64,000 bases of DNA, from the NCBI GenBank assembly GCA_010015805.1, contig ML978122.1:2824453-2888452 (forward strand), given 5' to 3'. This DNA comes from Rhizodiscina lignyota (taxonomy: Eukaryota). Below the pieces are notes generated by a model that searched no databases, was not told the origin of the DNA, and worked only from the letters and a program-made list of their open reading frames with translations. Below are positions 48,487 through 57,539 of this stretch, in pieces; position 1 is the stretch's first letter, and the number at the start of each line of letters is the position of its first letter. Position numbers and translations under genes: made by a program.

Positions 48487-50176
48487 ATGGCTCGTACGAA
48501 GGCTCTGTTATGGGCTCTCCCCCCAATCTTAGGAGCGCTGGCCGCACTTTTGCTCGAGGGAGCTTCAGCACAGCAAGACCCTCTGATAGACCCGCTAAGG
48601 TATAGGGAAGCATGTCCTGACTACCTTGCATACTCGAAACGTGGACAGTAAGTGGAATTCAAGAAGCATTTCAGTTTTTACTGCTTAAACTTTGTACAGC
48701 CCTCCCAGAAGCGAAGGCGACCTCCACCTCCCCTTCCAACGTCCCTCTCCTCACTGCCGAACCTTTACCTCGTCTCATGTTGAGAAGGTGATCGAAGATA
48801 TGAGCGAGAAGATGCTCGACAAAGACCTTGCGCGCATCTTCGAGAATGCCTTCCCAAATACCTTGGATACAACCGTGCGGTGGCATGTGGATGGGAAAGA
48901 GAGACCTAAGAAGGCCATCCACCCTGATAAAGGCGTATGGGACGGCGCGCAGTCATTCATCGTGACAGGCGACATCAATGCAGAGTGGCTGCGCGACTCG
49001 ACAAACCAGCTAGCACAGTACCAGATCCTTGCGAAGAAGGATCCCGCGATTTCGAACCTCATTTTGGGGGCCATCAACACTCAGGTTGAGTTCGTGATCA
49101 AGTTCCCGTACTGCAACGCGTTCCAACCTCCCGCACCATCAAGGCTACAACCTGTCGGCAACGGACAGACAGATGCAGTGCATCCGAACTACGAACCAGG
49201 CTTTGTGTTTGAGTGTAAGTACGAGCTCGACAGCCTAGCACACTTCCTGAGCTTGGGGAACCAGTACTGGGCGCACACAAAGAACAAAGCTTTCCTGACG
49301 TCGCGATGGTACAAGGCGATCGACACTGTTCTGGAGGTCATTGCACAGCAGAGCAAAGGCACCTTTGAGAAGAATGGGAAATATGTCCAGAACGAGTACC
49401 GATTCCAGCGCCAGACGAACACTGGCACTGAGACGCTGGGCCTGAGTGGTGTTGGGAACCCATTGGCAAATGACACGGGCTTGGTTCGAAGTGCTTTCAG
49501 ACCCAGCGATGATGCTACGATTCTTGGTTTCTTTATTCCAGCCAATGCGTTCATTGCTGTGGAACTGGAGAGGACTGCAGATATGCTGAAAGAGATTGGA
49601 GGAAAAGCGACGCTCGCGGAGACATTGCAGGACCTGTCTGATCGCATCAGAGAGGGTATTTGGGAGCATGGCGTTGTGACGCATAAGAAGTATGGAAAAG
49701 TCTTCGCTTATGAGGTGGACGGCTATGGAGGACAGATCTTGATGGACGATGCGAATCTTCCGAGTCTCTTGGCGCTGCCATTGCTGGGCTTCCTTGATAA
49801 CAGAGAGGAGACGTACCAGAACACAAGGAAGATGATTCTGGAGAAGAGCGGGAATCCGTACTACTTGCAGGGTCGCGAATTCCATGGGATTGGTGGACCG
49901 CACATTGGACTCGAGTACGCGTGGCCGATGAGCTTGCTTGTGCAGGCAATGACGAGCGATGATGATGACGAGATTATGGACAATTTGATGTTGGTCAGAA
50001 ATGCAAGCAGACTTGGTCTGGTGCATGAGAGTATCAACGTCAAGTTCCTTGTGGACTATACGAGACCTTGGTTTGCCTGGGCGAACTCGGTCTTCGCTCA
50101 AACGATTATCAACATCGCGCAGCGCAAGCCGCACCTCCTGTTCGGTGAGGGAGAGCAGGCTTATGTGTTCGAATGA
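48487..50176 (+). CDS. Secreted GH125 exo-alpha-1,6-mannosidase-like protein; intron 48648..48699
   Basis: Signal peptide; LPFQRP, FENAFPNTLDTT, TGDINAEWLRDS, ECKYELDSL, SAFRPSDDA, AYEVDGYG, MDDANLPSLL, GLVHES, RPWFAWANS. Confidence 0.93.
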
Positions 50177-52548: not shown

Positions 52549-52640
52549 CTTCCGTCTAGACTCGAGACACGAATCTCTTCATACATCCTCGCCTTGTTTT
52601 GTATATTGACTCTCACCTTCTAGATTCTTTGCCACATGCC

Positions 52641-54137
52641 ATGGACTCGATTTCGGAAGTTTCTGACCCTACAGACTGGTTACCTACCCCTCTCCCACTC
52701 CTCGCTCCAGTCGATTCGGCGCTACGATGTCAAGTCTGCAAGGATTTCTATGAAACCCCAATGATCACGTCGTGTTCGCACACCTTCTGCTCACTGTGTA
52801 TTCGCAAATGCCTCTCATCGGATGGCCGCTGCCCCGCATGCCGCGAACAAGACCAAGCCAGCAAATTGAGACGGAATTGGGCGATTCAAGAAGTAGTGGA
52901 GTCATTCAAGACAGCAAGACCACAAGTGTTGGACGTTGCAAAGAGAAGGGAAAATGAAGAAGATGGATCCCCAGTTCAAATAAAGGGCAGAAAGCGGAAG
53001 TGGCAAGACGTTGGTGGCGAGCGCGAGGACGCGGAGGGAGCTCGGAAGGCCGCGAGGCAGACACGAAGTCAGAGCCGAAAAGCGACGACTTCTGCAATCT
53101 CGCAGGACATCGTCATTCTCGATAGCGAGGGTGATGATGACTATGATCCGTCGGGGGAAGCTGAGGACTATCCACAACCAGGGGACGGACTTGTTCCATG
53201 TCCTGTGTGCGGAGCGCGAATGAAAGAGGAAGCGGTCTGGTTACACATTGAGCGTTGTGATGGAAATCCACCGAAGAAGCTGAGTGAAGCCAGGTTAGTG
53301 GTATCAATTTTTCGATTTATGTAACCCATGAGCTGAACCAATTCGAGGTCTATCACACCGCAAATCTCTGCTTCTCGTCACAATCGACCTCCTCAGCCAA
53401 ACCTTATTCCTCGATTACCACAACTGAATTACTCTCTGCTCAAGGACGGAGCTCTGAAGAAGAAATTCGACGATCTCGGTATACCTAATTGGGGTTCACG
53501 CGAACTGCTCATCCGTCGTCACACCGAATGGGTGAACTTGTACAATTCCAACGCCGACTCTTCAACTCCGAAATCCAACCGAGAACTGCTCAGAGAGCTG
53601 GACCTTTGGGAGCGCAGCCAGGGCGGAAGAGCGCCAGCGAGGGATGCCTTGTCGAAGAAGAAAGACTTCGATGGTAAAGCCTGGATGGAGGGTAACAAGA
53701 GCCAATTTGACGAGTTGATTCGGGAAGCGAGGAAGAAGCGGCAAGTGCCATCCAAGAAGGAGGGTCAAAAAGAAGAGACTGCAAATGATGGTGGCATTCG
53801 TGCCGGCGAATCTGTTATCAAAGCCAGAACTGCCAACACAGTTGTTCTAGCCCCTTCCACCGACATGGCTATGGGTCATAGAGAGCCATCCTCCATTGGC
53901 CATCAAGACACCCTTGACGTCCCGGTAGAGTCGATCTCATCACAAACGCTACCAGGGGCGGAGCCAACACCAACACTACCGACGCCTAACACCCCTTCCA
54001 AAGCGGAAAGGTCTCCAAATATGCCGTCCGCATTGCCTGGACAGTTGGCATTATCTTCCACCAAGAAGATGCCCATGTTTGCTATGCCATCAGAACCGAT
54101 ACGAGATGGGGATGGGATTGAGGACTCTACTCAATGA
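52641..54137 (+). CDS. RAD18: Post-replication repair E3 ubiquitin ligase Rad18; one intron, most likely 53294..53347
   Basis: SDPTDW; RING LRCQVCKDFYETPMITSCSHTFCSLCIRKCL...CPAC; UBZ CPVC...HIERC; SAP region RLPQLNYSLLKD...LGIPNWGSRELLIRRHTEWVNLYNSNADS. Confidence 0.95.
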
Positions 54138-55585: not shown

Positions 55586-57539
55586 TCACGCTCCGCCGCT
55601 ACTAGCCTTTTTGAGAGCATCGCCGTGAAGCTTCTTCCAGCTGCCAAATGCGCCAATAAATGTTGACACGCCGTATGCTGTGATCGTAATGGCAAAGACG
55701 GCTTTCAATCCAGTCATGTAGGCATCGACCACAAAGGGCACTTGCGTGGGTGTGAAGGCTGTGCGGATCTGCGTTGCACCAGTCGCTAGCGCCGTCGCTG
55801 GATTGATGTTTGGGAGTGATTTTGCCAACGCTTCGACGACCTGGTTATTGAAGGCCGATTGTGCTGCCGAGATGAAGAAGGACGCGCCGACCGTCAGAAA
55901 GACTGCACAACAAGTTCAGCGCGACACATTGCTTACGTTGTGAGGTGGACTTACAATTGATGATGGCCGTGACCTGCGACATGTCTTCGGGCGAAGCGTG
56001 GACTTGTCCATTAGAGAGCGCAACCTGGAATGTGTAGCCGCTCGTAAAGCCAACGATAATCTGGTACCCAATCCATTTTCCAGTTGTTGTATGAGCGTCC
56101 ATGGTGTAGAACAGGCCACAGCCAATACTGCCGAGTGCGCCACCAATGATCCAGAACAAGGGTACGATGCCAACCTTAGACAACGTGATCCCTTGGAGAA
56201 TGGCGGTAATGGTCAATGGTATGATGAGCGCAAGCATTTTGACGCCAGACCCTATGGGACTATTGTTGTAGACACTCTGAAAGTAGATCGGCAAGTAATA
56301 GAGGATGGTGAAGTAAGCTCCGCCAAAGAAAAACATAAAGATGGAGCCGACCCAGACATAGCGTTTAAGAAACTACAGTGGCTGAAGTTAGCACATCACG
56401 TCGAGCATATAGACGGACCGCGACCTACGAGCCGTGGAACGACCATTGCCCGCTCCTTTTGATAGAACTCCCATGCGATAAAGAATAGGAAGATGACAAA
56501 AGATCCGACCAGCAGGCCTATGACAGTGCTACTCTTCCATGGATGTGTTTGACCGCCGTATTGCATGGCCAGAATATATGAGACGATCAAGCCCATCATC
56601 AAGGCCGCGCCGACAAAATCCATTTGCAGCATCTTCTCCTTAAATGTAGCATCCACTGGCCTCGCAATCGCCGGGGTCTTGAAAAAGAGGAGAACGATGA
56701 TTGCTGCCAGTCCGCCGATAGGCAGGTTGATGTAAAAACACTATCACATGTCAGTAAAAGCTCGTCGTGAGCAAAATGCCTTGACATACCCAGCGCCATG
56801 TCACTTTGTCCGTGAACGCCCCGCCAAGGAGTGGTCCCAGAACTGCGGCGATACCATATGTTGCGCCTGTAAAGCCCAAGAGTGCCGGGCGATTCGCGGG
56901 AGCTGCAGCGAATGCAAGTATGGTGAAAACACCAACCACGACACCGGCTCCACCAAAGCCTGCGACTGCCCGACCGACAATCAAGGTTGTGGGATTTTGT
57001 GCAACACCGCAGACGAGACTGCCGACCTCAAAGACTAGCATGGCAACGAGGAACCATAGCTTTAGAGGGAAGTATTTGAAGAACTTGCCCCATACCGATT
57101 GAAATCCTGCCTGTATTAGCAATAGCCATCGTGAGTTGGAAAACTGAGCGGTCGCAGCATCGCGATCTCAGTAGAATATATTCTCTAGCTTTTGATCAGC
57201 GATCTCTCATGCGAACGCTGCAGGATGACGTCTTACTACCGCCAAAAGTCATAAAGTATGCTGATCCATACCATGAGACCTTGGTCAAATCATGAAACTC
57301 ATCCGTGATCTTAGGAATAGCCGTACTGAGGATGGTCTAGGAACAGCTTTGTAAGCTTGGCAGGATATTGGATGCATGCGACTTACATTGTCAAGTGAAA
57401 TTAGGAACATGGCAAGCATGAGCGATATGACGAGGGCAGCGAGGCGCGCGCCATGCGGATAGTCAATAGAGGCCGCCCCTTCGGATTCTGCGATCTTGAC
57501 ACTCGGGGAGCTCTCTTTATCTTCCAAGTCGAATGCCAT
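55586..57539 (-). CDS. MFS drug/toxin efflux pump (14 TM, DHA2, GliA/AflT-like); introns 57337..57386, 57107..57239, 56741..56789, 56373..56428, 55903..55954
   Basis: [103 protein letters not shown]. Confidence 0.93.
57107..57239 (-). other. Candidate [D3,4] spliceosomal twin intron (internal intron 57185..57236 nested in the donor of the external intron)
   Basis: Minus strand reads GTA[GTAAGA...GCTGAT...TAG]AGA...GCTAAT...CAG; removing the bracketed 52 nt rebuilds the donor GTAAGA. Confidence 0.65.

Follow-up and report, generated by a model that had tools for sequence, protein, structure and literature searches.

The DNA analyzed here, a window of 64,000 nucleotides (nt) from contig ML978122.1 of Rhizodiscina lignyota with a G+C content of approximately 50%, carries on its minus strand a six-exon gene for an efflux transporter of the MFS/DHA2 type, the second intron of which is exceptional in length and anatomy. 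While introns 1, 3, 4 and 5 of this gene measure 50, 49, 56 and 52 nt, intron 2 comprises 133 nt and contains two full sets of donor, branch and acceptor elements. Comparison of this intron with its counterparts in related loci indicates that it is probably a spliceosomal twin intron (stwintron) of the donor-disrupted type [D3,4], in which a 52-nt U2 intron separates the first three donor nucleotides of an external intron of 81 nt from the last three.

Anatomy of intron 2 and of its host gene

The predicted elements of intron 2 are the following:

57107..57239, minus strand: whole 133-nt intervening sequence, candidate [D3,4] stwintron, beginning GTAGTAAGA
57237..57239, minus strand: GTA, nucleotides 1-3 of the split external donor
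57185..57236, minus strand: internal intron, 52 nt
57231..57236, minus strand: internal donor GTAAGA, with 5 of 6 consensus matches
57195..57200, minus strand: internal branch element GCTGAT, fitting DYURAY, with the branch A at 57196, 11 nt upstream of the acceptor G
57185..57187, minus strand: internal acceptor TAG, fitting HAG
57182..57184, minus strand: AGA, nucleotides 4-6 of the split external donor, so that GTA and AGA together give GTAAGA
57115..57120, minus strand: external branch element GCTAAT, its A at 57116, 9 nt before the acceptor G
57107..57109, minus strand: external acceptor CAG; an earlier AG at 57112-57111 shifts the frame

The position of intron 2 and the lengths of 133, 52 and 81 nt given in the initial annotation of this DNA, together with 49-56 nt for the other introns of the gene, all proved right on the minus strand. 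Once the inner 52 nt are gone, the external unit reads GTAAGA..GCTAAT..CAG and forms a complete canonical intron of 81 nt, and each of the two units lies within the normal range of intron lengths. At its 5' end the unprocessed sequence GTAGTA (57239-57234) presents two GY dinucleotides 3 nt apart, which corresponds to a GYNGYN layout. Seven splice combinations were tried, and only the removal of 133 nt and the removal of 130 nt keep the reading frame open, the former giving ..TFGGFQ.. and the latter, which starts from the inner donor, giving ..TFGGRFQ... This in-frame alternative with one added residue had been anticipated in the initial annotation, and the same junction is used in the public annotation of the gene (protein P0001). 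Splicing from the first GT to the inner AG, removal of the inner unit alone, retention of the entire intron and splicing to the nearer AG at 57111 each run into stops and were discarded. In the outer acceptor region (57107-57113), a distance of 4 nt separates two AGs (..ACAG GCAG). Because the upstream one, only 5 nt past the branch A at 57116, shifts the frame into a stop, the downstream one must be used.

The host gene is modeled by coordinates as follows:

55586..57539, minus strand: coding sequence (CDS) from ATG to stop, six-exon MFS/DHA2-type efflux transporter gene
57539-57387, minus strand: exon 1
57240..57336, minus strand: exon 2, ending ..TTT GGC G in phase 1, with the first base of a Gly codon
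56790..57106, minus strand: exon 3, starting GA TTT CAA, which finishes the Gly codon and continues as FQSVWGK..
56740-56429, minus strand: exon 4
56372-55955, minus strand: exon 5
55902-55586, minus strand: exon 6

Joined at GT..AG borders and with all 133 nt of intron 2 removed, the exons form a CDS of 1614 nt that encodes 537 amino acids (aa) and contains a single terminal stop. The public model P0001, which shows 100% identity over exon 3 and which its source ascribes to R. lignyota (Dothideomycetes, Aulographales), matches the Pfam families MFS_1 (3.9e-39, 135 bits, cut-off 33.4) and TRI12 (3.8e-10, 39.3 bits, cut-off 23.2), and the product is therefore assigned to the MFS drug/H+ antiporters of the DHA2/TRI12 kind. 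Its closest solved relatives are pumps of the EfpA, EmrB and QacA type.

The nested layout in related loci

Metagenome contigs were scanned for relatives of the locus, and the best 80 of 520 relatives were kept for locus counts. Of these 80 loci, 16 (L001-L010, L012-L015, L020 and L021) carry an intron at the phase-1 site of intron 2, and together with the window they make up the 17 sequences compared below. These 16 are the loci nearest to the window, with 76-88% identity over exon 3 and with the other intron positions in common; an origin from metatranscripts was ruled out since their other introns are retained. The intron at the site is 105-147 nt long, compared with 48-68 nt for introns 1 and 3 of the same loci (28 introns). 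The initial annotation had proposed to look for the nested pattern in orthologues, and the layout was found in 16/16 loci bearing an intron there. Each of the [D3,4] predictions that could be tested at sequence level held. In all 16 the exon base is followed by GTR and then by a good donor (GTAAGT, GTGAGT, GTGAGC, GTTAGT, GTCAGT or GTACGT), and a CTGA[CT] branch element lies 9-13 nt upstream of HAG. Directly past the inner acceptor stands AGT in 11 loci, AGC in 5 and, as in the window, AGA in L002. The inner units measure 49-64 nt and the outer units 56-88 nt. Over the 17 sequences the initial GTR is invariant, and the inner HAG is followed by AG in every one of them.

Fourteen of the 16 intron sequences are distinct (L001 equals L004, and L020 equals L021), and grouping of close copies leaves approximately 11 lineages in addition to that of the window. 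When 14 sequences were aligned with MAFFT, the median pairwise identity was 49%; the columns with at least 80% identity map to the exon, to the GTR-GT at the start of the intron, to CTGA and AGAG of the inner unit and to the branch element and AG of the outer unit, with the exception of a lone column just past the inner AGAG.

The quality of the donors was scored in the 17 sequences against the fungal consensus GURWGY, which is quoted together with the branch consensus DYURAY and the acceptor consensus HAG in the literature on stwintrons (PMC7138796). The unprocessed terminal hexamer matches this consensus at 3/6 positions in 15 sequences, including the GTAGTA of the window, and at 4/6 in 2. 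The inner donor matches at 6/6 positions in 13 sequences and at 5/6 in 4, and the regenerated donor at 6/6 in 15 and at 5/6 in 2, the window being one of these. The proposal that removal of the inner unit would improve a poor donor is thereby borne out at sequence level, with GTAGTA (3/6) turning into GTAAGA (5/6) in the window and hexamers of 3-4/6 into donors of 5-6/6 in the relatives. A G at position +5 is found in 26/28 neighboring canonical introns versus 0/17 terminal hexamers.

The bases around the split donor vary in an informative manner. Removal of 133 nt leaves a split codon G/GN that encodes Gly in 17/17 sequences (GGC in 9, GGA in 4, GGG in 3 and GGT in 1). One-step splicing from the inner donor would add a residue that is G in 9, S in 6 and R in 2 of the 17, and this residue would fall inside the block YFMTFG..FQS.WGK, which is otherwise invariant in these loci. 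In the first GT the T is invariant, whereas the Gly codon before it ends in T, C or A. This variation pattern is the one expected of a putative split GTR/AGY donor and not of a coding position.

A special fold joining the distal splice sites, as in the sister stwintrons of Hypoxylon, was not indicated for the 133 nt of intron 2, the folding energy of which (-37.9 kcal/mol, z = -1.22) was equaled by 26/200 shuffles.

Matches over exon 3 relate the loci to named fungi: L012 is 100% identical to Aureobasidium pullulans, L015 100% to Extremus antarcticus, L001 99% to A. namibiae, L002 99% to Neophaeococcomyces mojaviensis, and L006 and L008 97% to Cladosporium sp. Since Neophaeococcomyces mojaviensis belongs to the Eurotiomycetes (Chaetothyriales), the nested layout spans at least two classes. 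Two of these loci have further peculiarities in exon 2. In L008 an in-frame stop approximately 240 nt upstream of position 2501 replaces the conserved Trp of WYG, with the nested layout intact, and this locus may be a pseudogene or contain a sequencing error. In L015 an extra intron lies within exon 2 between WYGS and AYFMTFG, upstream of position 1728.

Junction spacing and competing readings of the splice

The spacing of the protein family at this junction can be read from the other 64 of the 80 loci, which have no intron at the site: in every one a single codon separates TFG from FQ, or the counterparts of these motifs. A profile of 63 gap-free segments, i.e., the 64 intron-free loci minus L062, scores the product of the 133-nt removal at 103.1 bits and the product with the additional Arg, treated as an insertion, at 97.5 bits. 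Alignment of the solved bacterial DHA2 pump EfpA with P0001, the model that includes the Arg, opens a one-residue gap one residue before the Arg. By these three comparisons the family spacing is that of the full 133-nt removal, in agreement with the spacing which the initial annotation had given for this family. In the more distant L062, a canonical intron is situated 13 nt downstream of the site, where it splits the Trp codon after FQST behind its first base (around position 2440-2500).

A search with exon 3 listed 120 homologues, and the junction was readable in 69 of them, 34 with one residue between TFG and FQ and 35 with two (GG, GS, SG, CG, CT or GR). All 35 two-residue proteins are gene models from NCBI records. 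The models with an extra residue, which can be G, S, R, T or A, include P0001, P0003, P0007, P0012, P0015, P0016, P0095 and P0097. One-residue spacing is found in 23/23 proteins for which jgi, lgn or ena calls are the only source and which run across the site without interruption; these calls were presumably made without splicing. For a tree, 113 proteins with a length of 500 aa or more and a readable junction were used, shorter or unreadable ones being left out and the junction residues being removed beforehand; all 43 two-residue models fall into a single clade of 78 rows (support 100), where they are mixed with 31 one-residue models. Moreover, near-identical proteins differ only at the junction residue, as in Clonostachys chloroleuca (P0057 versus P0059), in Aureobasidium pullulans (P0156 and P0159 versus more than 20 others), in Trichoderma (P0221 and P0222 versus P0016 and P0220) and in Penicillium (TYG-S-FQ in P0201 and P0205 versus TYG-CT/CA-FQ). 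Such pairs point to annotation rather than biology, and the extra residue in P0001 and in about half of the orthologue models is probably a systematic mis-annotation caused by the nested intron. The extra residue in protein models suggests that the nested intron may also be present in Penicillium, Trichoderma, Fusarium and Clonostachys.

Some homologues show further features at the intron 2 site. P0024, with 98.6% identity to a protein of Aspergillus tetrazonus, comes from a genomic open reading frame (ORF) that runs uninterrupted across the sites of introns 2 and 3 (MTFGGFQ..TWRWCFY); its lineage has lost both introns precisely, with one-residue spacing left behind, which speaks for the [D3,4] reading. 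The A. brasiliensis model P0120 seems to translate through a short canonical intron of approximately 45 nt at the intron 2 site. P0038 (Coniosporium uncinatum) reads G-E-Y.. after TFG, and P0195 (Penicillium crustosum) reads C-E-R.. after TYG; both correspond to what GTG followed by AG.. would encode, as if the inner intron alone had been removed and the outer one translated.

The consequence of the extra Arg for the protein was considered on an AlphaFold model of P0001, computed with 33 aligned sequences, which has a mean predicted local distance difference test score (pLDDT) of 80.3. Helices are modeled at residues 68-83 and 89-96, and the Arg is held in a non-helical stretch between them (84-88, G-R-F-Q-S); the block 81-90 has a mean pLDDT of 65 versus 82-83 beside it, and the 19-residue hydropathy mean at the Arg site is 0.44. 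The initial annotation had placed the Arg in a transmembrane helix. Support for this placement is partial: hydropathy at the site is weak, and the Arg is located, in the model, at a local break between helical segments and not in a continuous helix.

If intron 2 is read as a [D3,4] stwintron, its doubled length, the conservation of the inner 3' elements and of the AG next to the inner acceptor, and the spacing of the family all find an explanation. Several observations weigh against it. The internal and the regenerated donor (both GTAAGA) end in A where the consensus has a pyrimidine, and the G at +5 is not absolute, as 2/28 neighboring introns have T there. The full nested motif has one match on both strands of the 64-kb window, at intron 2, and a mean of 0.15 matches in 100 dinucleotide-shuffled windows; at least one match occurs in 12 of these 100, and an inner branch element with HAG/AG arises in 262/5000 shuffles of the interior of intron 2 (approximately 5%). 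Within the window alone the pattern is only suggestive, and the weight therefore comes from the orthologues with their nested layout in 16/16; it is on this conservation that a chance origin of the layout was rejected. The 16 relatives are of common ancestry and hence are not 16 independent trials. Furthermore, the [D3,4] case is built on sequence comparison, and the one sequencing run matched to the window, not recorded as RNA, forms a single identical contig devoid of joints and is probably the source of the DNA. In addition, 35/69 readable homologue models carry the extra residue, and P0001, the sole public model of the gene, uses the inner donor with the far acceptor and reads GGRFQ. The protein models in particular would follow directly if the locus contained an ordinary 130-nt intron, extending from the donor at 57236 to the acceptor at 57107, with the upstream GT being part of the Gly codon and only the stronger site of the GYNGYN pair being used. 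The product is in frame, and in humans the preference within GYNGYN donors follows the strength of U1 binding (PMC1779574), which here favors the downstream GT. However, GGRFQ-type spacing is found in 0/23 uninterrupted ORF calls and in 0/64 intron-free loci, while all 35 proteins that carry it are NCBI gene models, and near-identical proteins differ in nothing else than the extra residue. This residue would vary between G, S and R within an invariant block, and the conserved inner branch, the inner acceptor and the AG next to it would be left unexplained, which makes an ordinary 130-nt intron unlikely.

The family spacing would also be obtained if the 133 nt were removed in a single step from the weak GTAGTA, perhaps aided by U1 bound to the overlapping GTAAGA, with the inner branch and acceptor unused. 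The two neighboring introns of related loci that lack G at +5 speak for the usability of such a donor, and both GTs of GYNGYN donors are used in animals and Arabidopsis (PMC1779574). Nevertheless, a terminal hexamer with T at +5 and just 3-4/6 matches in 17/17 sequences should be out-competed by the stronger donor 3 nt downstream, and single-step removal predicts neither the CTGAC..YAG/AG that is maintained amid diverged introns nor the approximately doubled length in 16 relatives, so that we hold it to be decidedly improbable. Finally, both paths might be taken at comparable levels, as regulated alternative splicing yielding the isoforms GGFQ and GGRFQ. The bypass is in frame here, whereas it shifts the frame in [D1,2] stwintrons (PMC9024468, PMC12403724), and the [D6,7] stwintron of Lipomyces starkeyi is removed both ways, the alternative product being 6 nt longer (PMC7138796). 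The extra residue, however, is not conserved (G, S or R, as counted above), and a selected second isoform is therefore unlikely; we regard two comparably abundant isoforms as highly improbable. GYNGYN-type use of both GTs could coexist with removal of the [D3,4] stwintron as a minor bypass.

Proposed two-step removal, related systems and implications

As a [D3,4] stwintron, intron 2 would be removed from the inside out. By intron definition, the strong donor at 57236 would pair with the nearest branch point (57196) and acceptor (57185), and the 52 nt would leave first. GTA would then be joined to AGA, which would create the donor GTAAGA directly after exon 2, and a second ordinary reaction using the branch point at 57116 and the acceptor at 57107 would take out the remaining 81 nt. 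The resulting mRNA would read ..TTT GGC G/GA TTT.. with the spacing shared by the entire family. As a minor bypass, joining of the inner donor to the far acceptor would remove 130 nt, preserve the frame and introduce one Arg. We infer the two reactions, their order and obligatory character, the ratio of the products and the isoform with the additional Arg from the sequences. For other stwintron types, two-step removal and intron definition were shown by reverse-transcription PCR of splicing intermediates (PMC7138796), and consecutive reactions are reported to predominate in known [D] stwintrons, overwhelmingly so in the [D1,2] type of Hypoxylon (PMC9024468).

The stwintron types demonstrated in the papers covered are [D1,2], [D2,3], [D4,5], [D5,6], [D6,7], [D7,8] and [A2,3] (PMC5639578, PMC5587772, PMC7138796, PMC9024468, PMC12403724, PMC8469720, PMC6616335), and types besides [D1,2] are rarely met according to a paper of 2025. 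In the literature passages covered, [D3,4] was not met among the stwintron types, whereby the notation itself is unsearchable as text and early papers and supplements lay outside the scope. The closest parallels are the [D2,3] stwintron of bioDA in Sordariomycetes and the [D4,5] stwintron in a reticulon-like gene of Lipomyces lipofer (PMC5639578, PMC7138796), which likewise consist of a U2 intron nested in the six-nucleotide donor of a second U2 intron, have units of normal size and positions conserved in orthologues, and are expected to be removed inside-out. Intron 2 differs from them in being split between nucleotides 3 and 4 and in being known from sequence. With the [D6,7] stwintron of Lipomyces starkeyi (PMC7138796) intron 2 shares the closely spaced donors and the potential choice between two-step removal and one-step removal with an in-frame longer exon; in L. 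starkeyi, however, the donors abut and the outer donor is intact (a stwintron sensu lato), and the exon gains 6 nt, whereas in intron 2 the donor is split and the gain is 3 nt. The tandem donors of the GYNGYN kind described by Hiller et al. (2006, PMC1779574) resemble intron 2 in having GTs 3 nt apart, the choice between which changes the protein by one residue. Such tandem donors need no inner branch, inner acceptor or regenerated donor, in contrast to the intron 2 site, where these elements are conserved in 17/17 sequences. Long Drosophila introns that undergo recursive (ratchet-point) splicing obtain their next 5' splice site through the first reaction, with GT standing directly after the inner acceptor (AG/GT). 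Intron 2 resembles these introns in its proposed stepwise removal, in which the first reaction would make the 5' splice site for the second; its inner acceptor, however, is followed by AGA (AGT, AGC or AGA in the relatives), and the GT comes from the three upstream bases.

The surroundings of the transporter gene include genes on the plus strand at 48689-50176 and 52560-54137, for a GH125 alpha-mannosidase and for a protein with a RING-finger and a SAP domain, the latter of Rad18-like architecture, as well as unnamed ORFs. Around the transporter no signs of a secondary-metabolite cluster were found, and the neighboring genes point to no link with the intron.

Taken together, the [D3,4] case is well supported by comparison, and the comparison has also brought to light a probable annotation error of one residue that is widespread. 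Approximately every second public model of the transporter, P0001 included, is probably one residue too long, and the residue concerned is modeled between two helical segments. It appears reasonably likely that intron 2 represents the first [D3,4] stwintron, that it is old, occupying one site of a DHA2 efflux pump in at least the Dothideomycetes and Chaetothyriales and maybe in Penicillium, Trichoderma, Fusarium and Clonostachys, and that, among the donor-split types, [D3,4] alone gives rise to a full-length protein when mis-spliced. If this is true, the in-frame bypass would explain both the persistence of the [D3,4] type and the false residue in dozens of public protein models. Stwintrons serve as models for the origin, shift and loss of spliceosomal introns and as proof that fungal splice sites are paired by intron definition, and a conserved [D3,4] case would supply the one split position of the donor hexamer still missing from the series, [D1,2], [D2,3], [D4,5] and [D5,6] having already been shown. 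Its presence in several fungal classes, together with natural controls such as intron-free relatives and a relative seemingly bearing a short canonical intron, would make it good material for studying gain and loss of nested introns. As [D3,4] would be the one split position with an in-frame one-step bypass, the accuracy of two-step removal could be read from a difference of a single codon.

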